Notes: generated by a model from the letters alone, not told the origin. 64,000 nt of DNA from Candidatus Pacearchaeota archaeon (GCA_009694725.1 SICV01000002.1:26966-90965); one strand, 5' to 3'; positions 3,094-39,639 are shown, counted from the first letter of the stretch. Program-made: numbers and translations.

Positions 3094-3159
3094 TGGGTTT
3101 TTTGTTTGTTTTCATATTTTGAGCAGTATATTTATATAGGGGTTTTGGTTTTGCAGAGA

Positions 3160-3645: not shown

Positions 3646-3686
3646 CTAAACAGAAGATATAAAAAGAGGATTCACGAAACACAACT

Positions 3687-4169
3687 ATGGATATACAATC
3701 GATTCTGATGCAATGGCAGAGCGTTGGTGTGTTTGATTATCTTCTTCCGTTCTTATTGATTTTTGCCCTCGTATTTGGGATTATGCAAAAGACTAAGATT
3801 TTGGGTGATGAAAAAGGGATTAATGTTTTGGTGGGGATTGTTGTTTCGTTACTTGCACTTCAATTAGATCTTGTACCTCGATTTTTCCAGGAAGCCTTTC
3901 CTCGCCTGGCTGTAGGTCTTGTGGTCTTATTTTGTTTGATGATTCTTATGTATATGTTTATTGATGACAAGAGTGGCCCTGGACTTAATTATGGGCTTTT
4001 AGCTGTTGGTTTTGTCATTGCGATCGTCATCTTTAGTCAATCCTTTGAGCAATTTGGCTGGAGTGGCAGCTTTGGATATGATCAGTATGTGGGTTGGATT
4101 GTAGGGGCAGTGCTTTTGATTGGAGTGATTATCGCTATTTCCTCTTCGGGTTCAGGTAAACCGAAATAA
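3687..4169 (+). CDS. 4-TM membrane protein, tandem paralog 2
   Basis: 160 aa with the same topology and N-terminal motif as 3160..3645. Upstream TATA is GATATAAAAAG. Confidence 0.65.
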   Translation: MDIQSILMQWQSVGVFDYLLPFLLIFALVFGIMQKTKILGDEKGINVLVGIVVSLLALQLDLVPRFFQEAFPRLAVGLVVLFCLMILMYMFIDDKSGPGLNYGLLAVGFVIAIVIFSQSFEQFGWSGSFGYDQYVGWIVGAVLLIGVIIAISSSGSGKPK

Positions 4170-4175
4170 TGTCCC

Positions 4176-4670
4176 ATGGTTGTTGATATTTCTGGTCTTG
4201 GGTATTTATTGCCTATTTGGTCGTTCTTGTTAGTGTTTATTATTTCATTTGCTGTAATGGTTTCTACGAAGATTGTGGGGGAGAATAAGTTTTGGTTAGT
4301 GTTTGTGTCATTTGTGCTCGCGACGTTGTTTATTACCGCCGCTGGAGCGCGAGAATATGTTGAGACTACGGCTCCCTGGGCAATTGTGATGTTGATCGTC
4401 GGATTCTTTATTTTGATGATTACTGGCTTTCTTGGCGGTAAGGCTAAGGAAATGCAAGGACCAGTTGGTATCGCATTAGTTATTGTCTTATTACTTATCT
4501 TTTTATTTGCTGCACTTAATATGTTCAGTGATCAGTTGTGGCAGTATACGCCTGACGGGTCTTCGATGAATCCATTTCTTTCGTGGGTGTATTCAGGGCC
4601 CGTTGCAGGAATGGTTATCTTATTAGCGGTGTGCGCGTTAGTTGGCTGGGTTTTGGTTAAGGTCAAGTAA
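4176..4670 (+). CDS. 4-TM membrane protein, tandem paralog 3 (more divergent)
   Basis: 164 aa with similar length and topology. Motif FAVMVSTKIVG sits at the equivalent position. Confidence 0.6.
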   Translation: MVVDISGLGYLLPIWSFLLVFIISFAVMVSTKIVGENKFWLVFVSFVLATLFITAAGAREYVETTAPWAIVMLIVGFFILMITGFLGGKAKEMQGPVGIALVIVLLLIFLFAALNMFSDQLWQYTPDGSSMNPFLSWVYSGPVAGMVILLAVCALVGWVLVKVK

Positions 4671-5065: not shown

Positions 5066-5737
5066 TTATTCTGATTGAGCTTGAGTTTGGCGTGTTCTAT
5101 TTGGTGTTTGGGCTTGTGCTTGTGTTTGTGTTTGTTGCCCTCGGGCACCCATGGATTTGACTGTCTTTTGGGTTTCGATGAGTTCTCGCTTGACATCTTC
5201 AACATTGGTGAGATAATCCCCGACGCGTTGGAGGAGAGAGAGTTGGAGTTTATCAATGATGTTTTCAATGCGCTTGAGACGTTCATCAAGTGAGCGTAGT
5301 TGCGATTCGCTTGTTCCTTTGAAGATGGAGAGTTGATTGAGGGTGTTCTCTACACGGCTCATTTTTTCTGTTACAACTTGTTCTGCTATTTCTGTAATGG
5401 TGTCTCCGCTTACTCCCCCACTTCCTCCTCCTGAAGTATACGCATATTGTTGACTCTGATCTTGATAGGCTTGATCGGCGTATTGTTGTTGTGGTTGAGG
5501 TTCGGGTTGAGGGATTGCCATGGGGGTTGTATCCTGAGAGTATCCTGTTGCGGAGAGCGAGGGTTGAAGGTCTTGCTCATTTTGAGCAGGAGCATTGACT
5601 GCGTCTCGGATTGCTGAGGTTGCAAGCGCTTCAGTCACTTCTTGTGCGCGATATCCCCTTCTTGTCAGTAATTGACTAATTACTTCATCTGATGTGCCTT
5701 GTTGGCGTAATTGATAGACTTCATCTGTGAGGGTCAT
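5066..5737 (-). CDS. coiled-coil protein with Q/P-rich linker (hypothetical)
   Basis: 223 aa. Small helical N-domain, low-complexity PQPEPQPQQQ linker, heptad-like C-terminal half. Overlaps the upstream ORF by 1 nt. Confidence 0.6.
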   Translation of the reverse strand: MTLTDEVYQLRQQGTSDEVISQLLTRRGYRAQEVTEALATSAIRDAVNAPAQNEQDLQPSLSATGYSQDTTPMAIPQPEPQPQQQYADQAYQDQSQQYAYTSGGGSGGVSGDTITEIAEQVVTEKMSRVENTLNQLSIFKGTSESQLRSLDERLKRIENIIDKLQLSLLQRVGDYLTNVEDVKRELIETQKTVKSMGARGQQTQTQAQAQTPNRTRQTQAQSE

Positions 5738-6012
5738 TATGCTCTGAGCATATCCATTTGTCTTTGGATACTAGCTACCTCCTCTTTTCGTGCACTATTA
5801 TTTGCTTGTTCAGCAAGATTACGAGTGAGTTCTTTGAGGCGTTGGGTATCACTTTGCAGAGAAACGACTATTTTTTTTGTCTCTGTCAATTCTTGAATAA
5901 GTCCGTCTCGTAATTCAACGAGGGTTTGTCCTATTAAGAGCACCCTTTCTTTGAGTAGACGCTGTCGTTCCTCTGTATCACGAATACGTGCATCTGTTAT
6001 CACCTCAGACAT
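5737..6012 (-). CDS. small coiled-coil protein (hypothetical)
   Basis: 91 aa, entirely helical/heptad-like. TATA TTTTTAAACC lies 25 nt upstream. Divergent from the pilus ATPase. Confidence 0.6.
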   Translation of the reverse strand: MSEVITDARIRDTEERQRLLKERVLLIGQTLVELRDGLIQELTETKKIVVSLQSDTQRLKELTRNLAEQANNSARKEEVASIQRQMDMLRA

Positions 6013-6095: not shown

Positions 6096-8360
6096 ATGTT
6101 ATTCAAAGAAAAAGCCCTCTTGTATGCAACCGAATTGGAACGAAAACAAGGTGAAACGCTCTTGTATGTGAATTATTTACAAGCGCCCTTTGTTCCCAGC
6201 CTTATCGATGGTCCCGGGGTCATGGCACGGACAATTGATGCTTTGATTCAGCATCCCGAGGTGAGTGGTCTTGTATTTGTACAACAACGACACTATGCGT
6301 ATACCCATGCACAAGTGCGTCTTTTGAGTGAAATTGCACGTTTACACACTTTTTTAACTAAACATGAAAAGATCCTTTCTCTTGAACTTTTGAATTTGTT
6401 TGGATCGGGGGAATCTCTCTTTGCCGATATGCATTACCTTATGGATTTACTTCGACAAGACCCGATGAGTTGTTATACTGAAGTGAAACGACGAGCAGTA
6501 CAGCTACGAGTACAGGTGACAAGTGGACAGGTAGCTAATCAACAAGGACTTTTAGGGTATGTGCGTTTACTTGAGCGAATACAGGGATTATTAGAGGGAA
6601 CTACCCTCATTGGGCAGGGCATTACACGAGGAATTATTTCGGGGAAAGTTTTGTATCAAGAAGTATTTCGTCCTGCCATCTTGCCGAACTTTAGTTTTAC
6701 TCGTCTTGCTGCTCAATTTCCGTTACATTCTAAACTTGTTGATCAATATACTATTCGAAGTGGAGAGGAAGAAGCAACGGTTACTTTATTACAAGTTCCC
6801 AATGATGCAAAATATATTTATCATGTATTACCTCCTGAATACCTGTTATCTGAAGAGCACCATCTTCTTTTGATGGTTGCTCGTCAAGTATTAATTGAAC
6901 ACCGACCTAAGGCCGAAGAATTCACTGATCCTGAAAAAACGCGCTCTATCTTTATACAAGTTGCACGAGATTTGTTAATGGAGTTGGGGGGACAGCGAAA
7001 CATTGCCCTTTCTTATTCAGATCTTGAACGATTAAGTCATATTCTTGTTCGACATACTATTGGATTTGGTATTTTGGAAGTGTTGCTTTGGGATCAAAAA
7101 TTGCAAGACATTGCTTTGAATGCTCCTATTGCGCAAAATCCTATTTTTGTTCGGCATGAAACGTTTGATGCCTGTGTAACCAATGTTGTGCCGAGTTATG
7201 AAGATGCAGATTCCTGGGCAGGAAAATTACGTTTGCAATCAGGAAGACCTTTGGATGAAGCAAATCCTATTTTAGATACTGATTTAGTATTCGGAGGTAT
7301 ACGGGCGAGAGTTGCTGCTATCAAGGAACCGCTTTCTCCTGCAGGCTTGGCGTATGCATTACGTCGTCATCGTGATCAACCTTGGACACTTCCTTTGTTT
7401 ATTCAGCGTAAAATGTTGAATCCCCTTGCTGCAGGTTTATTGAGTTTCTTAATCGATGGAAGTCGTACGTTACTTGTCGCGGGTACGCGGAGTTCAGGGA
7501 AAACAAGCTTATTGGGAAGTTTATTGTTAGAAGTCATGCCCCAGCATCGTATTGTGGTTGTAGAGGATACGTTAGAATTGCCCGTTGATGCTTTGCGAGA
7601 GATAGGGTATGATATATTACGTATGAAAGTTCGTTCTGCTTTGGTTACGGGAAGTACCGAGGTGGAAGCATCTGAAGGTATTCGTACTTCGTTACGTTTA
7701 GGAGATTCGGCCCTTATTGTAGGAGAAGTACGAAGTGGAGAGGCAAAAGCATTGTATGAAGCAATGCGAGTTGGAGCTCTCGCAAATGTTGTTGCAGGGA
7801 CCATTCATGGCGATTCTCCGTATGGAGTATTTGATCGTGTGGTGAATGACTTGGGTGTGCCCACGACCAGTTTTAAGGCAACAGACATCATTGTGGTTGC
7901 CAATCCGGTACGCACACCCGATGGGCTTCACTCGGTTCGTCGCATTATGAGTATTACCGAAGTACGTAAACATTGGACAAAGGATCCGGTCGCTGAAGGG
8001 GGATTTGTTGATTTAATGCGGTATAATGTTGAAACTGATCAGCTTGAACCGACACCAGAATTATTAAATGGAGATTCTGAAATTGTGAAAGCGATAGCTG
8101 GAACGGTTAAAGGATGGGCAGGGAATTGGGATGCCGTCTGGGATAATATTTTGTTACGTGCTGATATGAATCAGGCATTAGTGGGAATTGCCGAACGATT
8201 GAAAAAGCCACTGCTTCTTGAAGCTCCGTTTCACGCTTTAGCGAATCATCATTTTCATCGCATTGCTGAACAGGTACACATTGAACGAGGATTACCTGAT
8301 AGAATCCTTGTTTTTGCTCGATGGGAAGCCTGGTTAGGACAGGCTGCGCAGGCGTTTTAG
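6096..8360 (+). CDS. type II/IV secretion-family ATPase (FlaI/ArlI-PilB-like) with ~450-aa N-terminal extension
   Basis: Walker A GTRSSGKTS, Asp box/Walker B RIVVVEDTLEL, His box VVAGTIHGDSP. ATG at 6096 chosen over GTG at 6090. Confidence 0.85.
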   Translation: MLFKEKALLYATELERKQGETLLYVNYLQAPFVPSLIDGPGVMARTIDALIQHPEVSGLVFVQQRHYAYTHAQVRLLSEIARLHTFLTKHEKILSLELLNLFGSGESLFADMHYLMDLLRQDPMSCYTEVKRRAVQLRVQVTSGQVANQQGLLGYVRLLERIQGLLEGTTLIGQGITRGIISGKVLYQEVFRPAILPNFSFTRLAAQFPLHSKLVDQYTIRSGEEEATVTLLQVPNDAKYIYHVLPPEYLLSEEHHLLLMVARQVLIEHRPKAEEFTDPEKTRSIFIQVARDLLMELGGQRNIALSYSDLERLSHILVRHTIGFGILEVLLWDQKLQDIALNAPIAQNPIFVRHETFDACVTNVVPSYEDADSWAGKLRLQSGRPLDEANPILDTDLVFGGIRARVAAIKEPLSPAGLAYALRRHRDQPWTLPLFIQRKMLNPLAAGLLSFLIDGSRTLLVAGTRSSGKTSLLGSLLLEVMPQHRIVVVEDTLELPVDALREIGYDILRMKVRSALVTGSTEVEASEGIRTSLRLGDSALIVGEVRSGEAKALYEAMRVGALANVVAGTIHGDSPYGVFDRVVNDLGVPTTSFKATDIIVVANPVRTPDGLHSVRRIMSITEVRKHWTKDPVAEGGFVDLMRYNVETDQLEPTPELLNGDSEIVKAIAGTVKGWAGNWDAVWDNILLRADMNQALVGIAERLKKPLLLEAPFHALANHHFHRIAEQVHIERGLPDRILVFARWEAWLGQAAQAF

Positions 8361-8386
8361 GTTTTCTTTTTATTTTTCTCGTCTAT

Positions 8387-8422
8387 TATCTGATGTATGT
8401 ATTTGATGAGAGGTTCAGAGAA
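8387..8422 (+). repeat. intergenic motif copy (TATCTGATGTATGTATTTGATGAGAGGTTCAGAGAA)
   Basis: Follows the T-rich tract after the ATPase stop codon. Confidence 0.5.
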
Positions 8423-8455
8423 AAAGGAGATACCTGTGAAAGATAGGGTCGTTGG

Positions 8456-8498
8456 TATCTGATGTATGATTTGAGCATCTTTTTCAGAAGGGGCTTAG
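8456..8498 (+). repeat. intergenic motif copy (TATCTGATGTATGATTTGAGCATC..GGGGCTTAG)
   Basis: Second tandem copy in the same convergent spacer. Confidence 0.45.
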
Positions 8499-8513
8499 TT
8501 GGTTTTCTCTTAT

Positions 8514-10634
8514 TTACAAATCGCTAATAACTGTAAGGGCCAGGATAGTCAGAGTGAGGGTGGCGAGGAGCGTTGTACCTATGTAGAGAGCGAGACCGGT
8601 ACGGATGTTTTGTGCGCGTTCATATTTTTCTTTGAGTTGATCTTTTCCTGCGTCAACGGTGACAAGTGCGTTGGTGAGGATGAAAATAACTTGCAAGATA
8701 TAGATTCCAATCGCGAGTTGGATGAAATAAGGTGGAATCATTTCGCTTACTTTGAAAAGATCAGTTATGTTAAGGATACTGGAAAATCCTGACTCTTGCC
8801 CACTCGGAAGGGCATCTTTGAATGCTTCGAGTTTATTGAGAATTGCAGTGATCATGACGCTTAATCCCACTACAATTCCAGATAAGAGGGGCGCGAGGAA
8901 GGTCATATTGGAACGCATATCTGATACGACTTCTGCAAGAAGGTCGTGGAGACGTTGATTTATTTTTTCTACGTTTTTAATGTATTCAGATATTGACATC
9001 AGGGATTGGGCAGCCACCTGTAATCCCTTTTTTACTGATTCAACCAGGATACGCATGCTTGATGCAATGAGATTTGAAGGGAAGTAGGTGATTGCTCCTC
9101 GACGTTTATCAAAGAGGGCTTGTTCTAAGGACATGCCTGCTTGCTGGATATTGCTATTGACTAATGCAAAGAATTCATGTGTTTGTTGATTTTGTGTGAC
9201 TTCCGCTACTTTGGCGAATGCAATTTCTGCAGGGACATTATCGCCTAATCGATTACCGAGTTGGAAGAGGGAGGTTGTAAATTCTTGTTCTAATTGTTTT
9301 GTTTGGTCTCGGGCTTTAATGAGTTCTTTTGTTTTTGTCCGATAGACGAAATAGAGATAGAGGCCCAGTGCTGCAGGGAAACAGAGCCCCAGGAGGGTTG
9401 CAATCGGGCTAAAGGGCCCTACTTGTGCCCCGTTCACATTTTTGAAATCGAACAGTTTTTGATTTTCAAAGAAGGGAATATTTAATTCTTGGAATGTATA
9501 CTCTGCTTGAAGTCCGAATGTTTGTTGCACAAACGTGAGTTGCATGATGAAGGGGAGAAGCGTGGCACAGAGTCCAAGGAAGAGAATGGGTGAATAGGTA
9601 ATCCAGGGTTTATTTGAGGCGTATTGGGGATAGGCAGGGTTCTGTTCAAGAATGGTTGTTTCTCCATACCCTCCGGGGCGTTTGAGGAGTGCTTGATTGA
9701 CTAAATATACTACAACGAATGGAATGAGGAGGTTAAATCCGAGAAAGACATGATACCATTGTATGACGCCCCCCAACAATGTTGAAGCAAGGGGGAGCAT
9801 GGCCAATCCGAGGGTAGGGAGAATGATACCCAGCATGTAGACGTTTGTTAAGGGGGCACGCACTTCTCGACTATACTTGAGCATTTTTTCGTAGACGCCA
9901 TCAAGCATGACTTGGAGTGATTTTTCTAAAATCTGGATTCTGCGTGCTTCTGCTGGTTCGTACAGACTTGATTCAATTAAATGAAATGCTTCAATGAATT
10001 CGGGAGCATCTATTCGCCAGGAATCGAGATAGGTATCAAGTGATTGTTTGAGTGTGGAATATTTTCCGACTTCAACATCATAGATTACTTTTTGGAGTTC
10101 TTTTGCTAATGGTCCTGAGAGATTGTTTGCCGTGAAGGTGATTGCGCGTTCAAAATTTGACGTGTGTTTCATATAGATAACGGTGTAGAGTATTGCTGGA
10201 ACCATTTCTGCGCTTGCGGCTAATTTCCATTCGTGTGCAAGTCGGGCAGGGTAGGAAGAGAGGTAATAATAGAGGAAGATGCCTGCGATGATCCCGAGAG
10301 AGGCGAAGAGCACGGGGATGGCGGACGTTATGAAGAAGATCCCTGTGCTGATCAGGGTGGTGAGTAGAAATGTGCCGAGGAATCCGGTGAGGGCGAGACC
10401 GAGTGCTTGAGGTGGAGTGACATTGATGTGTGCTTCTTTGAGGGCTTGGGAGACTTTGAGTTCATCTTTCGGAGAGAGTTTGAAGGCAAGGATATTGCCC
10501 AAGGATTGGGCAAGACGTTCGTATTGCGTTAGTTCAGGAGTTACATCTTGTTTAAACTGTTTATATTCGTTTGATGTCTGACTCGTTTCGAGTCGAGCAA
10601 GGTATCGTTTGGCAAGGTCAGGAGGGGCACCCAT
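8514..10634 (-). CDS. polytopic membrane platform protein (FlaJ/PilC/TadC-like, putative)
   Basis: About 700 aa with many TM segments separated by two soluble helical blocks. Convergent with the ATPase and adjacent to the pilin genes. The start was moved from 10724 to the ATG at 10634, because the longer ORF would run through the divergent TATA and ATG of 10710..10856. Confidence 0.5.
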   Translation of the reverse strand: MGAPPDLAKRYLARLETSQTSNEYKQFKQDVTPELTQYERLAQSLGNILAFKLSPKDELKVSQALKEAHINVTPPQALGLALTGFLGTFLLTTLISTGIFFITSAIPVLFASLGIIAGIFLYYYLSSYPARLAHEWKLAASAEMVPAILYTVIYMKHTSNFERAITFTANNLSGPLAKELQKVIYDVEVGKYSTLKQSLDTYLDSWRIDAPEFIEAFHLIESSLYEPAEARRIQILEKSLQVMLDGVYEKMLKYSREVRAPLTNVYMLGIILPTLGLAMLPLASTLLGGVIQWYHVFLGFNLLIPFVVVYLVNQALLKRPGGYGETTILEQNPAYPQYASNKPWITYSPILFLGLCATLLPFIMQLTFVQQTFGLQAEYTFQELNIPFFENQKLFDFKNVNGAQVGPFSPIATLLGLCFPAALGLYLYFVYRTKTKELIKARDQTKQLEQEFTTSLFQLGNRLGDNVPAEIAFAKVAEVTQNQQTHEFFALVNSNIQQAGMSLEQALFDKRRGAITYFPSNLIASSMRILVESVKKGLQVAAQSLMSISEYIKNVEKINQRLHDLLAEVVSDMRSNMTFLAPLLSGIVVGLSVMITAILNKLEAFKDALPSGQESGFSSILNITDLFKVSEMIPPYFIQLAIGIYILQVIFILTNALVTVDAGKDQLKEKYERAQNIRTGLALYIGTTLLATLTLTILALTVISDL

Positions 10635-10709
10635 CTTTTCGTAGTATGCTCTTCCGTCGTTATAAACCTTCGGGGGAATGTATTTAAGGAAGGGGAGAAT
10701 GGAAGCATT

Positions 10710-10856
10710 ATGAAAAAAGCACAAACGCAGTCTGTGATTATTGGAGTTGTTATTGCCTTACTGGTATTAGCGTTATTTTTTGGACTTTACTTAACGCTTA
10801 GTGGTAAATTAGGGGGCGTTGTTGATACACTTCGAGGGTTTGTTCGAAAACCATGA
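10710..10856 (+). CDS. minimal pilin-like protein (class III signal peptide)
   Basis: 48 aa, below the ORF-track cutoff. MKKA|QTQSVIIGVVIALLVLALFFGLYL. TATA TATTTAAGG lies 22 nt upstream. ATGA overlap with the next gene. Confidence 0.55.
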   Translation: MKKAQTQSVIIGVVIALLVLALFFGLYLTLSGKLGGVVDTLRGFVRKP

Positions 10857-11623
10857 GGGGAGCATTACCACAAGATGAGCTGGGCAAATGGACAATTGGT
10901 TTGGTCTTGCTTTGCCTTGTCGCCGTTGCGTTAGTAACGCAATACAATTCAGGCGTTTTTTCTTTTTTTCAACAGATTCCCACTAATTTAACCAGTTATG
11001 ATACGGGGGATGGATATGCATATGTGCGCTATAACCCGGCCACTTTGCAAGTTGAATATCGTCAGACAGACACATGGGTTCGGTTTGGAGATGAAAGCAG
11101 ATCGTTTACGTTGGGGAAGGTAGATGTTGTGCCGGGGGAAGTGAAAGAAACGTTTCGACGGTATTGGTTTGGAGGGGTGCGAGGGAGTAATACTTTCTAT
11201 TTCTTGCAAGGAGAATTATCTTTAGTAAATGCCCCGGCCTATGTTTCTAGTGAAGTTTCTGACGTTTCTTTGTTTCCTTGGCCTAAACAGGTATATGTTT
11301 GTGCTACTCCGTGTATTAAACGAGGGGATTTAACTGGCGCTTATTTACTTCCAGGAGGGATTTCACCAGGAGTTTTCATTCTTCGGTCAAATAATGCGAT
11401 TGAATTTGTACGGAATACAGGAAGTACCTTTACGTTGCTGCAGAAAGAGTTGGAAGAAGCAAAGAAAGTGATGCTTGCGTATCGCGATGGCTATTTGGAT
11501 ATTCCTTTGAGTTATGGCGGAAAGGCATATTGTATACAGTATCGAGTTTCGGGGAAGGAAGGACATCTGGTTATTGATGTCGCACGACCTGTGGAGGATA
11601 CGACCGTATGCGCCGGGCAGTAG
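10853..11623 (+). CDS. pilin-like protein (N-terminal MRG|A + hydrophobic helix)
   Basis: MRGALPQDELGKWTIGLVLLCLVAVALV. 256 aa. Confidence 0.55.
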   Translation: MRGALPQDELGKWTIGLVLLCLVAVALVTQYNSGVFSFFQQIPTNLTSYDTGDGYAYVRYNPATLQVEYRQTDTWVRFGDESRSFTLGKVDVVPGEVKETFRRYWFGGVRGSNTFYFLQGELSLVNAPAYVSSEVSDVSLFPWPKQVYVCATPCIKRGDLTGAYLLPGGISPGVFILRSNNAIEFVRNTGSTFTLLQKELEEAKKVMLAYRDGYLDIPLSYGGKAYCIQYRVSGKEGHLVIDVARPVEDTTVCAGQ

Positions 11624-11715
11624 GGGGGGAGTCGATTGTTGGGGTGGGGATGTGGATCTTGTTTGCACTTATTGGTTTTTTTGCTGTGCGGTACTTACTC
11701 AAGGTTCTGACGTAA
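11608..11715 (+). CDS. possible 35-aa membrane peptide
   Basis: MRRAVGGESIVGVGMWILFALIGFFAVRYLLKVLT. Overlaps the upstream gene by 16 nt. Found by eye, not in the ORF track. Confidence 0.3.
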   Translation: MRRAVGGESIVGVGMWILFALIGFFAVRYLLKVLT

Positions 11716-11746
11716 TTGTTATAAAGTGCTTTCTGCTTGCTTGGAG

Positions 11747-12778
11747 ATGAAACGAGGGGATTTAGCTGCTGGTCAGATTGTGTTAGTGGTTTTGGCGATT
11801 GCTGCGTTTCTTGTGTTGGGATTATTTTTATGGTCATTACAAAGTGCTGCGGATGGGGGAGCACAAGCATGTAAATTATCGGTGTTGACTCGTGCGTCTG
11901 TTGGGGCGACAGGAGGGCAAAGCGTTCCTTTGAGTTGTGCAACTGAAAAGATTTGTATGGGGGAGAGAGGGGCAACCTGTGCTGAAAGTATGGCGGGAGA
12001 GGATATGACTTTGGTGAAATTGCCGAAGGATGCGAAGGATGCAACTACGTTAATTGAAGCAACTACTGCTGAAGCGATGTATCGCTGTTGGGATATGATG
12101 GGTAAAGGGCAATTGGATATTTCTACCGGCTATTTGGAATCACGCGGATTTAAGGAAGGCGATCCGATGTGTGTTATCTGTTCTCGTATCGCGGTTGATC
12201 GTAACGTTTCAGAGGGGGTGCTCAAGAAATTGGACTTTAGTGAATACATGCGTACAATGAAGGTGCCTGGGACTGGTTTAACCTATTTACAAGCATTTAG
12301 TGATAAGGATGTATCTGCGTATCCGGCTACTCCTTTTTTACGCGTTCCTCCTGCTGAAGGAGTCAGTAGATTTGATGCCCGTGGACAACAGATTGCGATT
12401 GTGTTTATGCAGGTTAAGACGACTTCCTGGGGAGATGCGACACAAAATACGCTCAGTGATCTTTTTGTAGGAACGACTGCTGCCGCAGGAGGTGCTTTTT
12501 ATGTTGCTCCGGTGAGCGCCGGTTTGAATGCGGGGCGTTTAATACAAGTTATTGGTAAAAATTTGAAAGTTTTCTCTATCGGTGTAGTGGTGGTTGGAAT
12601 AGGGGTTGCGGCTACTCAATATTTTGTTACCGGAGCGAGCCAAGATCTTGCTGCTGGACACTGTGGCCTCTATGCTGGTTCAAAGAATACGCAGGGATGT
12701 TCGGTGGTGCAGGCTGTGCCGTATGATGCGAAGGCAATTAATGCGTTGTGTAAAGGTAATATTGAAGGGGTCGCGTAA
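11747..12778 (+). CDS. Cys-rich pilin-like protein
   Basis: MKRG|DLAAGQIVLVVLAIAAFLVLGLF. The extracellular part has many Cys. A second hydrophobic segment lies near the C-terminus. Confidence 0.6.
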   Translation: MKRGDLAAGQIVLVVLAIAAFLVLGLFLWSLQSAADGGAQACKLSVLTRASVGATGGQSVPLSCATEKICMGERGATCAESMAGEDMTLVKLPKDAKDATTLIEATTAEAMYRCWDMMGKGQLDISTGYLESRGFKEGDPMCVICSRIAVDRNVSEGVLKKLDFSEYMRTMKVPGTGLTYLQAFSDKDVSAYPATPFLRVPPAEGVSRFDARGQQIAIVFMQVKTTSWGDATQNTLSDLFVGTTAAAGGAFYVAPVSAGLNAGRLIQVIGKNLKVFSIGVVVVGIGVAATQYFVTGASQDLAAGHCGLYAGSKNTQGCSVVQAVPYDAKAINALCKGNIEGVA

Positions 12779-13359
12779 TGAGAAAGGGCGATTTACTTAC
12801 CGATAATTTCTTGGAGATTTTGTTGGCAGTGATTGGATTAGTATTAGTAGGATATGTTGCGTATCAGATTTATCAGGTGACGGTGAATCAGGATGTGACC
12901 ATTGCGAAAAAGATGCTTGATTCTTTGGAGGCGAAGATTAATGTGCTGAAAGTGGGAGAAGAAGGGGAGTTCAGTCTTCGTACACCTTATTCTTCGAAAG
13001 AGGCATCTAATTGGTTTATCACTGGCTGGTCAAATACCGATTTACATCGACCTGAAAAGTGTTATTTTGAGAGTTGTGTGTGTGCATGTAGAGGTATTGG
13101 TAATGGGGGCGGATGGGAAGATAATCTACGAACGCGTACTTGTCAAGAATCAGGCTATTGTCGTTTTTTTGATGATTCTTTGATAGTAGTTAAAGGGATT
13201 GACGAAGTATCAATAATTGGAAATGTAGGGACAGACCCTATTCCTACATTACAAAAGACAGGTCAAACTAAAGAAGAACCGTATATTCGTTTACAGCAAG
13301 GGCTTATGCTTTTCAAGGTGAGTAAGACTACTGAGGGAGTGACTATTCGGTCAACATGA
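12778..13359 (+). CDS. pilin-like protein
   Basis: MRKG|DLLTDNFLEILLAVIGLVLVGYV. TAATG-type overlap with the upstream gene. Confidence 0.6.
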   Translation: MRKGDLLTDNFLEILLAVIGLVLVGYVAYQIYQVTVNQDVTIAKKMLDSLEAKINVLKVGEEGEFSLRTPYSSKEASNWFITGWSNTDLHRPEKCYFESCVCACRGIGNGGGWEDNLRTRTCQESGYCRFFDDSLIVVKGIDEVSIIGNVGTDPIPTLQKTGQTKEEPYIRLQQGLMLFKVSKTTEGVTIRST

Positions 13360-13766
13360 GCATGAAACGAGGAGAGGGAAATGGCTTGTTAGAAGGGACG
13401 GTGATTTATTGGGTGATATTATTGATGTTTGCCGGTATTTTGGGGTCCTTTGTGTTGCGGCATCAGGGCACGACCGATCGATGGGAAGACTATTATGCGT
13501 TTGTGATTGCACAGACGATTGATAAAGCTCAACCAGGGGATGTGATTGTGCTTGATGTGAGTGCGCCGGTACAGATCGGTGCACGAAATAAAGTTGCCAC
13601 GGTTGATGAGATGTTTGTGTTACAAGAGGGGAGACAGGAAGTGGGAGTACGTTTGCGTGCGGGAAAAGCGCATTGGTACTCATATCTTCGTGATGTGTCT
13701 GTGAGTAATTGGCATGTTGATCGAGCAGGTGAGAAAGTAACGTTAGTGTTTGAGGTCGGAGCATGA
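13356..13766 (+). CDS. pilin-like protein
   Basis: MSMKRG|EGNGLLEGTVIYWVILLMFAGIL. 4-nt overlap with the upstream gene. Confidence 0.6.
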   Translation: MSMKRGEGNGLLEGTVIYWVILLMFAGILGSFVLRHQGTTDRWEDYYAFVIAQTIDKAQPGDVIVLDVSAPVQIGARNKVATVDEMFVLQEGRQEVGVRLRAGKAHWYSYLRDVSVSNWHVDRAGEKVTLVFEVGA

Positions 13767-14191
13767 GCGCAGGGAATCAACTTTCCTTTTTTTCATTCTT
13801 TTTGTTGTTATTGATTGTAGGGGGGGGAATTGTAGGGGGGGTGTATCTCTATTATGGCGGGGGAGCAGATTATCGTGTTACTCAGAGTGGGGCATTTGCG
13901 TATATGCTTGAACGATGTGTACAACAGGGCCTTTTTGATGGGACGTTTGGTTCGTGTGGTATCGATGAGCAGGTGGTGACGCGAGAAAAGTATATTGTTG
14001 CGGTGTGTGCCGATGATTGTTTTGGAAATGGGGGAACGACCTTATTACGCGCAGGAGATCATGTTGAGCAATGTCGATTTGGGGTGAAACAATCTGCAAC
14101 GTATCCGAAGTGTGCTGAACGTGTGTTTACTGTTGATGGAAAGAATTATCAGATTGTGGTGGGAACTACGTATCGCGGGAGAAATGCATAA
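13763..14191 (+). CDS. pilin-like protein
   Basis: MSAG|NQLSFFSFFLLLLIVGGGIVGGVY. 4-nt overlap with the upstream gene. Confidence 0.5.
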   Translation: MSAGNQLSFFSFFLLLLIVGGGIVGGVYLYYGGGADYRVTQSGAFAYMLERCVQQGLFDGTFGSCGIDEQVVTREKYIVAVCADDCFGNGGTTLLRAGDHVEQCRFGVKQSATYPKCAERVFTVDGKNYQIVVGTTYRGRNA

Positions 14192-14805
14192 TGCGTGGGC
14201 AACTAGCTAAATTGTTGGGGACTATTCCTATTTTGCTTGCAGTTGTGTTTCTCATGGGCTTGTTTCTTGTAGGGGCGAAATTACTTGCTGTGCACACTTC
14301 ACCCCCTTCTGCTTCGTTATATGTGGTACCTGAAGGTTCTTTGTTAAGTGAACACATTGTGTTTGGAGGAAGGAATAGGAGTGTGCTTGAAGTATTGTTC
14401 TTATCTTATTTTGACAAACCTTCTGAACTGGCATTTATGCAGGGTGTACGTGGACTTGCGACCGCTTCGCTCCCGAGCACGATTTACTATGATCCGTTGG
14501 CTTTGACGACATCGTTTAGTTCATCCTGTGTGTTTTTTACGATTGATGAAGTGAGTAAGGGACGGGACGGGATTCGCTATCTCTTTCGACGAACTGCGTC
14601 GGGGAATGTAGCTGAAAGTATTACGTATGCTGCGTTAGAACCTTATTCTTCTGCCGGTGCGGTGCCGTTACCTCCTTGGCAACGTTTCCGAGATGATTCT
14701 AATAACAATATTCGTCCCGCTGAACCAGTTGTGCGTGTCTTTTTGACGCGTGAAGGACAAGAATTTGAGTTGATCGCATATGCGGGGAAATGTGACCGTG
14801 CGTAG
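14191..14805 (+). CDS. pilin-like protein
   Basis: MRG|QLAKLLGTIPILLAVVFLMGLFLVG. 1-nt overlap with the upstream gene. Confidence 0.6.
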   Translation: MRGQLAKLLGTIPILLAVVFLMGLFLVGAKLLAVHTSPPSASLYVVPEGSLLSEHIVFGGRNRSVLEVLFLSYFDKPSELAFMQGVRGLATASLPSTIYYDPLALTTSFSSSCVFFTIDEVSKGRDGIRYLFRRTASGNVAESITYAALEPYSSAGAVPLPPWQRFRDDSNNNIRPAEPVVRVFLTREGQEFELIAYAGKCDRA

Positions 14806-15259
14806 AGGAGATTCACCCACCATTGGGGTGTTGCTTGTTGCGGTTTTATTGATTATTCTTGCAGGGATGGGGATGACCCGTTCTCCACAGGTGGTAAGTA
14901 ACGTTGTGATTGATGATGTGCAGTATTCTGTTGATGTATTGGAACTATTCGTACAAGAACGATTGGAACAGCTTGCTCAGGATGCATTGGTATGTACAAC
15001 TTGCACGGGGGTCGATTTGAAAGAACGTATGATCGAATTACGTCGAGAGTTGCATCTGACGAATACTAATTTTTATGGGAAGGTTCGTTCGGGTGATTTT
15101 ACTGTTGCCGTGGATGAAGAAGGATTTTTTGTTGTTCGATTTGAGGGCCTGTGGGTTACGGCACACAAAGGGGAAACCAAAGTTACTCGTACCTTTAATG
15201 GGGAGCTTGTTCTTGATGAGAATGGGCAGCTAGTGCGGAAGATTTATAAACAAAAATGA
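14780..15259 (+). CDS. pilin-like protein
   Basis: VRRG|DSPTIGVLLVAVLLIILAGMG. The true start may be GTG at 14798 rather than ATG at 14780. Confidence 0.55.
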   Translation: MRGNVTVRRGDSPTIGVLLVAVLLIILAGMGMTRSPQVVSNVVIDDVQYSVDVLELFVQERLEQLAQDALVCTTCTGVDLKERMIELRRELHLTNTNFYGKVRSGDFTVAVDEEGFFVVRFEGLWVTAHKGETKVTRTFNGELVLDENGQLVRKIYKQK

Positions 15260-15271
15260 TTGGGGGAGAGT

Positions 15272-15763
15272 ATGAAACGAGGAGGTTTGGCTGATGAGAG
15301 TGGGGGCTCTATGATTTTAACGCTTGTGCTTATTGTTGTTGTTATTGGTGGGATTTACATTGCGTATAATGCTTATCGAGGATTGGATACAGCGAATATT
15401 CCTCTTACCACTATTGTTACTACGTGTAATGCAGTTGCAGGTGTTGAACAAGGTAAGGCTGAATATTGTACCCTTGTTTCTAAAAAATATACAGAAATTG
15501 ATGGTCGTTCACGGTATGTTGATTGTGAGTTTCTGGCTAGTAAGAATCTTTTAGATTCTCCTACTCCTGTGTTCGGTGCTTGTCCAACTGTTGCTAGTGG
15601 TGAACGAGAAAAGTCATTTTGTAATGCTCTTCTTGCTCAGCGGAAGATTGCACGAGATACGTTTGTGAATAATAAAGCCTGCTTTATAGATGCAGATGCT
15701 ACTAATAATTGGTTGGGTGAAAGCTATCAAACTGCTACTGCTCGTGCCTCTCAAAAACCATAA
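15272..15763 (+). CDS. pilin-like protein
   Basis: MKRG|GLADESGGSMILTLVLIVVVIGGIY. ATG at 15272 is preceded by GGGGGAGAG. Confidence 0.6.
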   Translation: MKRGGLADESGGSMILTLVLIVVVIGGIYIAYNAYRGLDTANIPLTTIVTTCNAVAGVEQGKAEYCTLVSKKYTEIDGRSRYVDCEFLASKNLLDSPTPVFGACPTVASGEREKSFCNALLAQRKIARDTFVNNKACFIDADATNNWLGESYQTATARASQKP

Positions 15764-15771
15764 TTATTCTC

Positions 15772-15900
15772 ATGGATTACGCAGTACCTGATCGACGAAA
15801 GACCAAGAATGATAAACGTGCGAAGGGGAAGTTCACCCGATATAAGCGGGGTGGGCAACATCGAGTTGATGTAATTGTGGTTCGTTCTGAGAAGAAATGA
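15772..15900 (+). CDS. possible 42-aa basic protein
   Basis: MDYAVPDRRKTKNDKRAKGKFTRYKRGGQHRVDVIVVRSEKK. Last ORF of the operon, followed by a T-run. Confidence 0.3.
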   Translation: MDYAVPDRRKTKNDKRAKGKFTRYKRGGQHRVDVIVVRSEKK

Positions 15901-15913
15901 TTTATTTTTTTTA

Positions 15914-15939
15914 GCGCTTTTGGTGAGAGATTTAGGAAG
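15914..15939 (+). repeat. intergenic motif, 3' half only (GCGCTTTTGGTGAGAGATTTAGGAAG)
   Basis: Directly follows a T10 tract after the pilin operon. Confidence 0.45.
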
Positions 15940-16096
15940 TTGTACATAGAAAGGCAGGTTGTTTGTGGGGCTAGTCTATTATCCGATATACGTACTTGTT
16001 CTGCATTCAGATGATACCGACTTTCTGAATAATTGGCTCACCCTGGATATGAGATACTTCCGCGTATTTTATTAACTCCTTTTTAGTATACTGAGT

Positions 16097-16921
16097 ATGT
16101 TCGAAGTGGTGTTTGGATTTGTGTTGGTATTGTTGGGGTTTGCTGCGATACATGATTGGAAGACGACGTTTGTGAGTGATTGGGTGGTGTATGCATTGTT
16201 TTGTGTTGGTCTTGTCGGACTGGTGGTGCAGGGGCATGTATTGGAAGGTTTGAGTGTGACTGCGGGGCTTGCGGTACTTGCTCTTCTGTTTTATTACGGC
16301 GGGGTGTTCGCTCAAGGGGATGCGCGTTTATTGGTTGCCTTGGGACCTGTCTTGCCTGGGCTTGACCTTCTTTCTCGTGGGTGGTATGCGAGCGGATTTG
16401 TATTGACACTTCTTTTTGTTGGACTGGTATATACGTTGGCTATCAGTGGGTGGCATGCCTGGAAGAGTGCGACGTATGGGAAAGCATGTGAAGGTTTCTT
16501 TGAACAGTATGTGGTTGTTTTCTGGATATTTGTCTTTGGGGGATTGGTGAGTTCGTTTTTCCTTTCAAGTATGGCCTGGGGACTGATGTGGAGTGGGGCG
16601 TGGGTGTTATTTGGTTTATTTCTTCATGCAAAAGCGGTGGAAGAAACATGTTTCATTAGACTTACTCGTCCTGATGCATTATTGGAAGGGGATTGGCTTG
16701 TTTCCTCGGTGAAGGTGGGCTCACACACGTTCTCGCCTTCTGCTGCGGGATTGTCTCGGGCAGATATTGCATTGTTACGTCGGTATCGACGGTCTGTGGT
16801 CATTAAACAGGGGATTCCGTTTGTGCCTGTCTTTTTTATTGCGTATGGACTTATGGGATACGTCGTTTTAGGAGGATATGCTGCAGATGTGTTGAGGTTG
16901 GTGCGAGGAGTACTTTCTTAG
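16097..16921 (+). CDS. A24-family prepilin/preflagellin peptidase (PibD/FlaK-like)
   Basis: First catalytic Asp context AAIHDWKT. Second context VFAQGDARLLVALG, which resembles the GxGDxKL motif. Polytopic. TATA TTTTATTAA lies 25 nt upstream. Confidence 0.7.
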   Translation: MFEVVFGFVLVLLGFAAIHDWKTTFVSDWVVYALFCVGLVGLVVQGHVLEGLSVTAGLAVLALLFYYGGVFAQGDARLLVALGPVLPGLDLLSRGWYASGFVLTLLFVGLVYTLAISGWHAWKSATYGKACEGFFEQYVVVFWIFVFGGLVSSFFLSSMAWGLMWSGAWVLFGLFLHAKAVEETCFIRLTRPDALLEGDWLVSSVKVGSHTFSPSAAGLSRADIALLRRYRRSVVIKQGIPFVPVFFIAYGLMGYVVLGGYAADVLRLVRGVLS

Positions 16922-37694: not shown

Positions 37695-37829
37695 ATGAAG
37701 AAATACTTACTATTAGTTGAGGATGAGCGCATATGGGAGCAGTTTAAGAAAGTGATTAGCCAGGATTTGAATACAGAGATTTTGCAGTTAATTCGCGAGA
37801 AGGTGGGGGTATCACATGGGAAAAAATAG
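37695..37829 (+). CDS. 44-aa protein, possibly RHH-type regulator
   Basis: MKKYLLLVEDERIWEQFKKVISQDLNTEILQLIREKVGVSHGKK. Preceded by GGAGGAGAGAGG. Overlaps the next ORF by 14 nt. Confidence 0.4.
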   Translation: MKKYLLLVEDERIWEQFKKVISQDLNTEILQLIREKVGVSHGKK

Positions 37830-39639
37830 GGGGCAGACGGTCACGCTCTTTGTTATCATTGCGTTGGTCTTTGTGGGTGGTATTGCTGGATATTTTGCGG
37901 TGCAGAAGGGATTGTTAGGTACTCAAGACACTGAATCATTTAGTGCGGTGTATCAGTATTATGATCAGTGTGTACAACAAGCCCTTCAGGAAGGGGTTGA
38001 GCTTGCAGGATTGCAAGGGGGATGGATATATGTCCCGGATTATATTGAAGGAAGTACGCGGTATCCAAGTGGATCGCAGCTTTCTTTCTTAGGACAAGGC
38101 ATTCCCTATTGGTTATATGTTTCTGGAAATGGACAATTAGTTGAGCAGGTACCGACTAAAACGCAGATGGAACAAGGTATTGCGCGCTATATCAAAGAGG
38201 AAGTTGCTTTGTGTGATTTTGGTCCTTTATACGTACAAGAGTATGAAATTGGATCAACGGTTGACACGGTGACGGTCAGGGTTGGTGAAGGAACGGTTGA
38301 TGCTGTGGTAAAGGGAGAACTTTTGGTTGCGCGCGATGGACAGGAAGCACGAGTTTCTTCTCGTAGTTATTCAGAAGCAAGTCAGTTAGGTGCACTGTAT
38401 CTTCAAGCACTTGCCTGGTATCAGTCTGAAAAAGAAAGTGCTCTTTTGGAAAATTATACTCGTGATGTGTTGGTTAATTATGCTCCGGTTGATGGGGTTG
38501 AAGTGAAGTGTGGTCCGCAGGTATGGGAAACACGAAAGGTAGTGGATACACTTCGTGAAGGAATAAGTGCTAATCTGGGGGCATTGTCTTCCGAACGAAC
38601 AGGGTATTTCAAAGTAGTTGGAGAAGGAACGGCTCCGGTTCGTTTTATGAGTGATTCTTCCTGGCCAGGGCGAGTTGAAATTTATGGGGAGGGCGTTTCT
38701 CAGGAAGTGATGCTTGCACAGCCCATTGGTACACAACAGGGATTAGGGGCACTTGGCTTTTGTTATGTGCCGTATCATTTTGTGTATGATATTGTTCATC
38801 CAGTGCTAGTACAATTTGGAGAAGGAGATGGTGATCTTTTTCAATTTCCGTTGATTCTTGTTATTGATAAAAACCTTCCTCGTCAGGGATTGAGTGGAGA
38901 GATTGAGCAAGGGCCTTCTCAGGATTTGTGTTTACAGCTAACTGAGGAACTTTCTATTCGTGTTTCAGATGTTGCTTTAGAACCTGTCCTCAATGTAACT
39001 GTTTCTTATTCTTGTTTTGATCAGGAGTGTCGGGTTGGAGAAGGGAATGGCGTTGTGCAGGGTAAGGCACCAGGATGTGTGAATGGACAGCTCGTTGTTC
39101 GTGCTCCCGGTTATCAGGAGAAATCACTTTTGTTTTCTTCTACTGAGGAAGAAGAAGCAGATATTATTCTTGATAAAACGTATCCTGTTCGAGTAGCATT
39201 GTTTGCGGGGGGGAAGGAAGTTGGGGAGACAGGGATTGTTTCGTTCCACGGTACTGCACAGTCTACTGCAGTTGTTCCTTCTCAAACCGAGGTTTCTTTG
39301 GTTGAAGGTTTGTATAATGTGAGTGTATTGGTGTATGGGAATACGAGTATTCAGCTTGAAGCTTCAACAACTCAGCAGTGTGTGGATGTACCTATTGGAG
39401 GGATCGGGGGACTCTTTGGGGGAACAAAGGAGCAGTGCTTTAGTGTGACTATTCCTGCAAGTACGGTTGAGTATGCATTATTGGGTGGAGGAGAGAGTAC
39501 CGTGTATTTGTTCCCTGCAGATTTAGAAGATGGACAAGTGCGTATTGATATCCCTGCTCTTCAGAAACCAACCTCTTTGACTCAGTTACAAACCTTTTAT
39601 GATCAATTTACTACTCAATCTGCGATGGTGACTCCATGA
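37816..39639 (+). CDS. 607-aa surface protein with pilin-type class III signal
   Basis: MGKNRG|QTVTLFVIIALVFVGGIAGYF. No recognisable domain in the remainder. ATGA overlap with the giant gene. Confidence 0.7.
   Translation: MGKNRGQTVTLFVIIALVFVGGIAGYFAVQKGLLGTQDTESFSAVYQYYDQCVQQALQEGVELAGLQGGWIYVPDYIEGSTRYPSGSQLSFLGQGIPYWLYVSGNGQLVEQVPTKTQMEQGIARYIKEEVALCDFGPLYVQEYEIGSTVDTVTVRVGEGTVDAVVKGELLVARDGQEARVSSRSYSEASQLGALYLQALAWYQSEKESALLENYTRDVLVNYAPVDGVEVKCGPQVWETRKVVDTLREGISANLGALSSERTGYFKVVGEGTAPVRFMSDSSWPGRVEIYGEGVSQEVMLAQPIGTQQGLGALGFCYVPYHFVYDIVHPVLVQFGEGDGDLFQFPLILVIDKNLPRQGLSGEIEQGPSQDLCLQLTEELSIRVSDVALEPVLNVTVSYSCFDQECRVGEGNGVVQGKAPGCVNGQLVVRAPGYQEKSLLFSSTEEEEADIILDKTYPVRVALFAGGKEVGETGIVSFHGTAQSTAVVPSQTEVSLVEGLYNVSVLVYGNTSIQLEASTTQQCVDVPIGGIGGLFGGTKEQCFSVTIPASTVEYALLGGGESTVYLFPADLEDGQVRIDIPALQKPTSLTQLQTFYDQFTTQSAMVTP

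Follow-up and report, generated by a model that had tools for sequence, protein, structure and literature searches.

A probable type IV filament assembly machine with ten pilin-like genes, syntenic across an archaeal order, in a Pacearchaeota-type DPANN archaeon

The window analysed here is the whole stretch of 64,000 nt from Candidatus Pacearchaeota archaeon (GCA_009694725.1, SICV01000002.1:26966-90965), and positions are counted from its first letter. The region 6096-16921 contains four core parts, namely a secretion ATPase, a platform protein, an A24 prepilin peptidase, and an operon of ten pilin-like ORFs. Every ORF proposed by a sequence-only reading of this DNA was found in place; its count of nine pilin-like genes was one short, the 35-aa ORF at 11608-11715 having been missed. 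The features are as follows, with the grounds for each in brackets and a slash at the putative cleavage site:

5066..5737, - strand, u223, 223-aa soluble protein with a coiled-coil C-terminus, divergent from the ATPase gene (synteny)
5737..6012, - strand, u91, 91-aa coiled-coil protein, gene adjacent to that of the ATPase on the upstream side and divergent from it (synteny)
6096..8360, + strand, secretion ATPase of the PilB/GspE/TadA/FlaI superfamily, 754 aa (Pfam T2SSE, PDB relatives, invariant motifs)
8514..10634, - strand, polytopic platform protein, 706 aa, with predicted T2SSF-like cytoplasmic domain(s) (T2SSF, AF2/Foldseek, hydrophobic segments)
10710..10856, + strand, p48, prepilin-like, MKKA/QTQS..., first operon gene, predicted mature protein of about 44 aa (leader; family in 51 loci)
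10853..11623, + strand, p256, prepilin-like, MRG/ALPQ... (leader; family in 30 loci)
11608..11715, + strand, p35, tenth prepilin-like ORF, 35 aa, MRRA/VGGESIVGVGMWILFALIGFFAVRYLLKVLT (MRRA/VGGES...) (leader; positional homologs)
11747..12778, + strand, p343, prepilin-like, Cys-rich, MKRG/DLAAGQ... (leader; best-conserved pilin-like protein)
12778..13359, + strand, p193, prepilin-like, MRKG/DLLT... (leader; family in 46 loci)
13356..13766, + strand, p136, prepilin-like, MSMKRG/EGNG... (leader; family in 43 loci)
13763..14191, + strand, p142, prepilin-like, MSAG/NQLS, atypical leader (family in 42 loci)
14191..14805, + strand, p204, prepilin-like, MRG/QLAK... (leader; family in 22 loci)
14780..15259, + strand, p159, prepilin-like, ...VRRG/DSPT... 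(leader; family in 37 loci)
15272..15763, + strand, p167, prepilin-like, MKRG/GLADES..., candidate major pilin (leader)
15772..15900, + strand, p42, small, very basic, non-membrane protein, last operon gene (position kept in 30 loci)
16097..16921, + strand, class III signal (prepilin) peptidase, A24 family, FlaK/PibD-like, 274 aa (Pfam, FlaK profile)
37816..39639, + strand, 607-aa protein with the class III-like N-terminus MGKNRG/QTVTLFVII..., distant candidate substrate

The ATPase matches Pfam T2SSE (E = 1.5e-14), and among solved structures it is related to afGspE (2oap, 2e-27) and CpaF (9e-25), FlaI being less close (1e-15) in the same structure-sequence search. Its top NCBIfam matches, TadA (TIGR03819, 131.6 bits) and FlaI (NF058587, 119.4 bits), both lie far under their cut-offs of 373 and 550 bits, respectively. 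The Walker A (GTRSSGKT, residues 463-470) and His (TIHG, residues 569-572) boxes and the Asp box (VVVEDTLEL), all three already picked out by the sequence-only reading, as well as the Walker B motif (IVGEVR), show no variation among 12 homologs. The N-terminal extension of about 450 aa that had been attributed to the enzyme proved too long. That is, the part beyond an afGspE-like enzyme amounts to only about 185-200 aa, because the afGspE alignment begins at query residue 207 and chain residue 23. Residues 1-207 have no sequence relative in Pfam or the PDB and are conserved within the family; this stretch of about 200 aa at the N-terminus is specific to the family.

The platform protein starts at the ATG at 10634, in agreement with an identical database protein (P0121), and has nine hydrophobic segments. 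In its C-terminal half (residues 488-601 of a 736-aa reading), the Pfam T2SSF score is 23.8 bits and so just short of the cut-off of 25.2, and in the divergent relatives P0395 and P0384 the same family was found above the cut-off in the N-terminal half (residues about 138-270). No match was obtained against PDB sequences, nor did hhalign find an internal repeat. In the AF2 model (pLDDT 77), domains resembled the cytoplasmic domains of EpsF, OutF and PilC by Foldseek, with probabilities of 0.98-0.99 and TM-scores on the target of 0.67-0.72, these local values being good while the E-values for the whole model were poor. Taken together, the near-threshold match of the protein itself, the sequences of the relatives and the model are evidence that it may carry T2SSF-like domains in both halves, and the lack of a T2SSF-like fold, which would have spoken against the sequence-only reading, is not what these results indicate. 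A single platform gene, as in the window, was detected in 40 of the 47 loci with sufficient downstream flank. Some platform homologs are tagged TadB in JGI annotations.

The peptidase scored 29.4 bits with Pfam Peptidase_A24 (cut-off 26.5), and its profile aligned with FlaK (3s0x) at E = 2.5e-12 with both Asp motifs in register. The two catalytic Asp residues, on which the assignment of this product had been made to depend, are D20 (HDWK) and D75 (QGDARL), and both are unchanged in 12 orthologs.

The operon (10710-15900) is preceded by a TATA-like TATTTAAG at 10681-10688, upstream of p48, and followed by a T8 run at 15905-15912 after the last stop codon. Neighbouring genes either overlap, by 1, 4, 16 or 26 nt, or lie 0-31 nt apart, the p48/p256 junction being an ATGA overlap. 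Two products are very short: p48 is without a globular domain, and mature p35 would be essentially a single helix. Homologs of p35 (35-62 aa) occur at the identical operon position in 37 loci, and the HMM of this family matches the window ORF at 7.8e-13. At the other extreme, p343 has ten Cys residues, mostly invariant, and in its AF2 model a long N-terminal helix (residues 8-33 and 37-59) is followed by an alpha/beta domain for which Foldseek found no relative in the PDB. The Cys richness of p343 had been seen before; the second transmembrane segment then ascribed to it is not established, the stretch 265-283 being weak (KD 1.72) and of low pLDDT. The family of p167 is the only one present in 1-3 tandem copies per locus, and its members are 15-23% identical, with a conserved NKKGQE.S..T.I.IVLG N-terminus and four invariant Cys. 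Finally, p42 matches no known family in Pfam or NCBIfam, has a median identity of 42% among loci, and may have a part in the machine.

All ten pilin-like ORFs begin with a short leader ending in G or A and followed by a long hydrophobic helix, and the leader is basic in all but p142. The common signature described in the sequence-only reading thus holds save for MSAG/N of p142, which is without K or R at -2; the consensus of the p142 family is N-[KR]-[KR]-[GA]. This N-[KR]-[KR]-[GA] motif is conserved in each of the ten orthologous families. [KR][GA] stands just before the helix in 84-89% of 411 family members from 82 related loci, as compared with 13-15% of 390 control ORFs having an N-terminal transmembrane helix, an approximately six-fold enrichment. 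In several of the ORFs, 2-10 polar or acidic residues lie between leader and helix. The families are orthologous across loci and fast-evolving (16-29% identity), and alignment between families by hhalign revealed similarity confined to the first 30-50 columns (probability 60-97% for most pairs). A common N-terminal module is thus joined to divergent C-terminal domains, as one would expect of type IV pilin-like proteins. The ORFs matched no pilin family in Pfam or NCBIfam and no PDB sequence, and, as noted above, p343 has no Foldseek relative; what justifies the label 'pilin' is thus the N-terminal module together with the genomic context.

That context is a near-universal syntenic feature of the archaeal order to which the organism belongs. 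The entire gene order, p48-p256-p35-p343-p193-p136-p142-p204-p159-p167(x1-3)-p42-peptidase, is repeated in the genomes of dozens of relatives, each labelled Pacearchaeota, Woesearchaeota or Nanoarchaeota; in these genomes the pilin-like genes are strictly co-located and co-oriented with those for the ATPase, platform and A24 peptidase. The ATPase is present in at least 570 species genomes, and the platform family comprises 1164 clusters at 50% identity. The locus seen by the sequence-only reading is real but no peculiarity of a single genome, an ordinariness that had been overlooked.

Synteny extends upstream of the ATPase. Among the 42 related loci having at least 7 kb of upstream sequence, a u223 homolog lies upstream of the ATPase in 41, as does u91 in 41, mostly 50-300 bp from the ATPase start, whereas the helicase beyond u223 is retained in just 23. 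Neither protein belongs to a Pfam or NCBIfam family; from their synteny they are candidate accessory components. Elsewhere in the window, position 37816 is the only further ORF start with a class III-like N-terminus (longest ORFs of at least 30 aa). This is the additional protein that had been reported beside a giant gene: the 3′ end of its gene overlaps the start of a gene for a 2196-aa secreted protein by 4 nt. The 607-aa product has no Pfam family.

Four of the features that define a type IV filament (TFF) system are found here: an ATPase with the diagnostic motifs, a platform with predicted GspF/PilC/TadC-type (T2SSF) helical domains, an A24 peptidase with two Asp residues, and substrates bearing a class III signal (a short basic leader with G/A at -1, ahead of a hydrophobic helix some 20 residues long); a fifth, the cutting of the leaders and the polymerisation of the subunits into a filament, is predicted from them. 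We therefore read 6096-16921 as the complete TFF assembly machine of a tiny Pacearchaeota-type DPANN archaeon, with a probability of about 0.88. The ten operon products would enter the membrane via their N-terminal helix, and the A24 aspartyl peptidase (D20/D75) would cut the basic leader after G/A at the cytoplasmic face. A hexameric ATPase docked on the platform could then use ATP to lift mature subunits from the bilayer and build them, by way of the hydrophobic N-terminal helices, into a polymeric surface filament. The bulk subunit might come from one or two families, the candidates being p167 (duplicated, hypervariable, with four Cys) or p48 (the first gene, without a globular domain), and the remaining single-copy families of fixed order would provide minor pilins with priming, capping or adhesive functions. 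A contact or uptake function, the idea of the sequence-only reading, may apply; most likely, the filament would serve for attachment to surfaces or to a host cell.

A different product of the same machinery is conceivable, namely a short pseudopilus. It could serve for uptake of DNA or other macromolecules, along the lines of pilus-dependent natural transformation, or else surface proteins could be exported and displayed by it; precedents are the T2SS/Com systems of bacteria and the Sulfolobus bindosome. In that case the numerous conserved single-copy pilin-like proteins would make up a defined piston or tip complex, and nine or ten fixed-order single-copy families do look more like a set of minor pilins or pseudopilins than like the operon of a simple pilus, with p48 and p35 scarcely more than a helix. 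Many biosynthetic pathways are missing from DPANN archaea, which depend on imported building blocks, and this would suit uptake, and the 607-aa leader-bearing protein beside the giant secreted protein could be displayed cargo. Nevertheless, neither a ComEC-like gene for DNA translocation nor a substrate-binding protein carrying a class III leader turned up in a Pfam scan of about 6 kb upstream and about 7 kb downstream, BasE, the model for the bindosome ATPase, gave only 52.6 bits against a cut-off of 1000, and p167 is duplicated and hypervariable, as expected of an exposed major filament subunit. We consider a pseudopilus unlikely, if worth keeping in mind. Far less probable is that the small ORFs encode ordinary, uncleaved signal-anchored membrane proteins lying between ATPase and peptidase by chance and forming no filament. 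The polar spacers after the putative cleavage site and the lack of sequence or fold matches with known pilins could be taken in this sense, but [KR][GA] occurs at the same position in ten families, about six-fold over other anchors, the N-terminal module is homologous between families, and the co-location and co-orientation with the three machine genes are strict; the N-termini are thus unlikely to be those of common anchors. An archaellum, the rotary swimming organelle, has homologous ATPase, platform and peptidase, and some JGI annotations name the ATPase homologs FlaI, with which the enzyme does align, but this reading is rejected as hardly credible, since the FlaI equivalog score is far under its cut-off, afGspE and CpaF are closer, none of the 114 pilin-like ORFs matches a Pfam archaellin or archaeal pilin family, and genes for a FlaH/KaiC-like ATPase, FlaF/G and FlaC/D/E/X are absent from the locus and flanks (the absence of FlaF/G/H-type genes, remarked on earlier by eye, extends to the gene tables of related loci L001 and L002).

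The filament system proposed here has the core of archaeal type IV pili and other TFF systems, in that a VirB11/GspE-family ATPase and a TadC/FlaJ-like platform are combined with an A24 peptidase and with pilins bearing class III leaders. In such systems ATPase N-terminal domains are variable and pilins fast-evolving (Makarova, Koonin & Albers 2016, PMC4858521; Sivabalasarma & Albers 2026, bioRxiv 10.64898/2026.04.22.720090). The present locus differs from catalogued archaeal TFF in that its ten pilin-like families have no Pfam match, and it is not described in the available portions of these two papers. Diverse pilins have been predicted among the products of DPANN 'dark matter' islands beside FlaI/TadC genes (Makarova, Wolf & Koonin 2019, PMC6393860, Fig. 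2A), and, as far as the available part of that paper goes, this is the same kind of locus, with unannotated small signal-peptide proteins encoded around ATPase and platform genes that can be recognised. The present analysis goes beyond that general example by defining ten orthologous families and the fixed order of their genes, together with a conserved cleavage motif, a cognate peptidase and the order-wide distribution. DPANN loci with unrecognisable pilins are thus already in the literature, and the Pacearchaeota locus adds a lineage-specific member to a family of machines that is well known.

Among characterised systems, the Epd pilus of Methanococcus maripaludis (TFF system 1, which has been reported in some DPANN) likewise has a long operon with many pilin-like genes, its own peptidase, and some short pilins without a globular domain. 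In the present locus, p48 and p35 have the architecture of its short major pilin, EpdE. System 1 has two platform genes and a dedicated peptidase, EpdA (arCOG02300; the 9-TM form according to Makarova 2016, PMC4858521), whereas in the present locus there is one platform gene, for the 706-aa protein, and the 274-aa peptidase is FlaK-like. The bacterial Tad/Flp pilus shares an operon opening with a very short pilin gene, and TadA/CpaF are among the closest relatives of the ATPase. However, TadB and TadC are not present as separate proteins in the locus, and TadZ, a secretin and the G/xxxxEY Flp motif are missing; with the TadA score well below its cut-off, these accessory genes absent and a different leader consensus, membership of the Tad/Flp group is rejected.

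A purely functional analogy is offered by the type IV pili with which CPR bacteria (Saccharibacteria) drive episymbiosis (PMC9894109, PMC11623550), these bacteria also being ultrasmall, host-dependent cells with conserved pilus loci. The CPR pili are bacterial T4aP with PilT-type retraction, homology to the Pacearchaeota locus being limited to the TFF core. An adhesion or host-contact role would be in line with the reading favoured here, and the locus supplies candidate genes for the attachment of uncultured Pacearchaeota-type cells to surfaces or hosts.

Nine ORFs on the + strand of the pilin-like operon encode a short basic leader followed by G or A and then a helix of ~20 residues, and every ORF named in the sequence-only reading, made by a model, was present. 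That reading had counted at least nine genes with a class III signal; the nine were confirmed, and a tenth that it had missed, p35 (11608-11715, 35 aa, MRRA/VGGESIVGVGMWILFALIGFFAVRYLLKVLT, the slash marking the leader cleavage site), was added. Orthologs of p35, 35-62 aa long, occupy the same operon place in other genomes. The main features, in window positions, are:

3106-4670 (+), three small multi-TM proteins, u179, u160 and u164 (179, 160 and 164 aa)
5066-5737 (-), u223, a coiled-coil protein of 223 aa
5737-6012 (-), u91, a coiled-coil protein of 91 aa
6096-8360 (+), secretion ATPase, 754 aa
8514-10634 (-), platform protein, 706 aa
10710-15900 (+), operon of pilin-like genes, whose products are named by length (p48 to p343)
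15772-15900 (+), p42, last gene of the operon
16097-16921 (+), prepilin peptidase
37816-39639 (+), 607-aa protein with a class III-like leader, followed directly 3' by a gene for a 2196-aa protein

The genes of the operon lie close together, with a TATA-like element upstream and a T8 run after p42. In every pilin-like family the consensus N-[KR]-[KR]-[GA] directly precedes the helix, and the cleavage motif was found in 84-89% of 411 family members but in only 13-15% of a comparison set of 390 further N-terminally anchored ORFs from the same loci. Moreover, an acidic residue lies at most 6 residues past the site in 79% of the pilin-like family members. Profile-profile comparison linked the families solely through their first 30-50 columns, and likeness confined to this region is a hallmark of type IV pilin-like proteins. 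Among 114 pilin-like ORFs from 12 genomes no match to the archaeal pilin or archaellin families of Pfam was found, and the p167 and p343 family profiles gave only noise against the PDB. In its model, p343 starts with a long helix and continues with an alpha/beta, disulfide-rich domain, for which a Foldseek search of the PDB returned no match with a probability >0.15. A second TM had been proposed for this Cys-rich protein; residues 265-283 are weakly hydrophobic and poorly modelled, and the segment is therefore not taken as shown. The p42 product (MDYAVPDRRKTKNDKRAKGKF...) is a highly basic, non-membrane protein of 42 aa with the motifs DY...ERRK.KNDKRAK...YK.GG..R; in 30 loci its gene is conserved at the end of the operon, and the protein matched no known family in Pfam or NCBIfam.

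The product of 16097-16921 exceeds the Pfam A24 cut-off. D20 (QDLKxRE context) and D75 (GGDxKL context) were invariant in an alignment of 12 peptidase orthologs, and the peptidase profile matched FlaK 3s0x at 2.5e-12 with both Asp motifs aligned; both catalytic Asp are present, in agreement with the initial assignment of an A24-type prepilin peptidase. The copy in the window is unusually divergent (26-35% identity to its orthologs), reading HDWK and QGDAR where the orthologs have QDLK and GGDAK. In this same genome the leader of the pilin-like protein p142 (MSAG/N) has lost its basic residue, the p142 orthologs having N-[KR]-[KR]-[GA].

The product of 6096-8360 belongs to the secretion ATPases and matches Pfam T2SSE at E = 1.5e-14. 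In NCBIfam it scores highest against TadA (131.6 bits) and FlaI (119.4 bits), in each case far under the equivalog cut-off. Among solved structures it is nearest to A. fulgidus GspE (2e-27), followed by CpaF (9e-25) and FlaI (1e-15). The Walker A, Asp box, Walker B and His box showed no variation among the homologs. The alignment with A. fulgidus GspE starts at residue 207, so that the part without counterpart is ~185-200 aa long, rather than the N-terminal extension of about 450 aa proposed at first. This region is conserved within the ATPase family, and for the N-terminal 207 aa no relative was found in Pfam or among PDB sequences. Some ATPase orthologs from outside the window (P0080 and P0109) are ~1280 aa long and contain intein and LAGLIDADG domains (PF14890, PF14528); the window copy has no intein.

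The platform protein, encoded convergently, has nine hydrophobic segments. Its C-terminal half matches Pfam T2SSF slightly under the cut-off, and divergent members of its family match T2SSF above the cut-off in the N-terminal half, which points to one predicted T2SSF-like domain per half. The AF2 model is all helical (pLDDT 77, pTM 0.72), and Foldseek matched it to the cytoplasmic domains of EpsF, OutF and PilC at probabilities of 0.98-0.99, with target TM-scores of 0.67-0.72 and rmsd of 3.0-3.4 Å. Because of the T2SSF matches of divergent members, the helical model and the Foldseek matches, we regard the protein as a PilC/GspF/TadC-type platform, and the T2SSF-like fold expected of it was recovered in the model at the level of domains. 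The bridge to the FlaJ/TadC families runs via Pfam scans of divergent members: no match to PDB sequences was obtained with either the single sequence or a 28-sequence profile, hhalign of the N-terminal against the C-terminal half gave no repeat signal on an alignment of low diversity, and in a profile search of 1.84 billion representatives the best 150 matches were all full-length family members, with no FlaJ/TadC bridge among them. The family comprises 1164 clusters at 50% identity, and most homologs of the protein are annotated as "hypothetical". A start at TTG 10724 was rejected, as it would overlap p48 and an identical database protein begins at ATG 10634.

Iterated HMMs over 82 related loci recovered ten orthologous pilin-like families in the conserved order p48-p256-p35-p343-p193-p136-p142-p204-p159-p167-p42-peptidase, the sole common variant placing p193 ahead of p35. 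Copy number varies, from 1 to 3, for p167 only. About half of the related loci have a convergent platform gene, the others a co-directional one. Identity to the window copies is 16-29% for the pilin-like proteins and ~57-65% for the core proteins. At least 570 species-level genomes carry an ATPase homolog with 57-71% identity over the full length, and every one of them bears a Pacearchaeota, Woesearchaeota or Nanoarchaeota label. Within Pacearchaeota the locus is nearly universal and strongly syntenic, and most of its products are annotated as "hypothetical". The u91/u223 pair, divergent from the ATPase gene, adjoins it in 41 of 42 related loci and is retained there more often than the other neighbours are. 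No family was found for u91 or u223 in Pfam or NCBIfam; from synteny only, the two may serve the pilus machine as a cytoplasmic accessory module. Further upstream, u179, u160 and u164 are syntenic in 29-38 of 42 genomes, and they too matched no Pfam or NCBIfam family.

Type IV pilus genes have previously been reported in DPANN, and Makarova et al. 2019 (PMC6393860) described unrecognisable signal-peptide proteins beside FlaI/TadC in DPANN islands as probable pilins. It is therefore well supported that the locus is a lineage-specific representative of an established class of machines, the type IV filament (TFF) machines. The texts consulted of two archaeal TFF surveys (PMC4858521; bioRxiv 10.64898/2026.04.22.720090) do not describe it. 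The standard TFF cycle is the best-supported account of how its components would work: the prepilins would be inserted in the membrane, their leaders removed by the A24 peptidase, and the ATPase and platform would power subunit extraction and helical polymerisation. The first candidate for the major subunit is p167, given its duplication, its hypervariability and its four invariant Cys; p48, as the first gene and one without a globular domain, is an alternative, and the conserved single-copy families would be minor pilins. For such a filament in a DPANN archaeon, adhesion or host contact is a plausible role.

A pseudopilus for uptake or display is a conceivable alternative product of the locus. 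Rather unlikely, in our estimate, is the joint reading of the ten-family operon as a dedicated Pacearchaeales host-interaction organelle and not an ordinary adhesion pilus. In that case a fixed multi-subunit tip or pseudopilus complex, confined to Pacearchaeales, would make the host-cell contact and might take up DNA or metabolites through it, u91/u223, together with the ATPase's novel N-domain of 200 aa, would be its cytoplasmic control module, and the cargo on display might be the 607-aa class III protein with the neighbouring 2196-aa secreted protein. Membership of known systems was rejected for the archaellum (the FlaI equivalog test failed and no FlaH, FlaF/G or archaellin was found in the locus), for Epd / system 1, which by its description is unlike this locus with its one platform gene and FlaK-like peptidase, and for bacterial Tad, no Tad-specific accessory being present. 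The earlier remark, that no FlaF/G/H-type accessory genes were recognised, also holds for the flanks scanned with Pfam.

The 607-aa protein (MGKNRG/QTVT...) is, among the longest ORFs of at least 30 aa, the only other one in the window whose start has such an N-terminus, and it does adjoin the giant gene as first described: the two genes share 4 nt, at the 3' end of the first and the start of the second (37816-46226, +). The 2196-aa protein has a Sec-type signal peptide. Neither protein matched a Pfam family or had a homolog in the flanks of 82 related loci, and NCBIfam gave no family for the 607-aa protein; the two could be a pilus-associated adhesin pair. The window is archaeal, with housekeeping neighbours that include RadA, EF-1beta and a DEAD helicase. 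Two tRNA genes, at 37146-37269 (-) and 52917-53009 (+), are longer than normal (Rfam spans of 124 and 91 nt), and ARAGORN gives the latter an odd 4-base anticodon, consistent with archaeal tRNA introns in both. On the + strand, GC skew stays between +0.1 and +0.35 across all 2-kb bins, a very strong asymmetry; at third codon positions GC skew is +0.47 in both gene orientations and AT skew is -0.20 to -0.26. This points to a mutational bias, probably replication-linked, with the whole window on one replichore, and the bias seems large by archaeal standards.

The Pacearchaeota, abundant and ultrasmall but uncultured archaea, may be free-living or host-attached. He et al. 2020 (bioRxiv 10.1101/2020.05.14.094862) took piliated ultrasmall groundwater cells to be CPR bacteria, reasoning that DPANN genomes have no type IV pilus components; the wide distribution of the locus speaks against ruling out DPANN because cells are piliated. 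What is added here is detail (ten families, a cleavage motif, a peptidase and their distribution) and no new principle, and the understanding of how TFF machines work is unchanged. The locus would represent a surface machine of Pacearchaeota that has been overlooked so far. The families, the motif and the cognate peptidase are targets for metaproteomics, for filament identification by antibodies or cryo-ET and for heterologous cleavage assays, and the defined families would improve the automated annotation of DPANN genomes.
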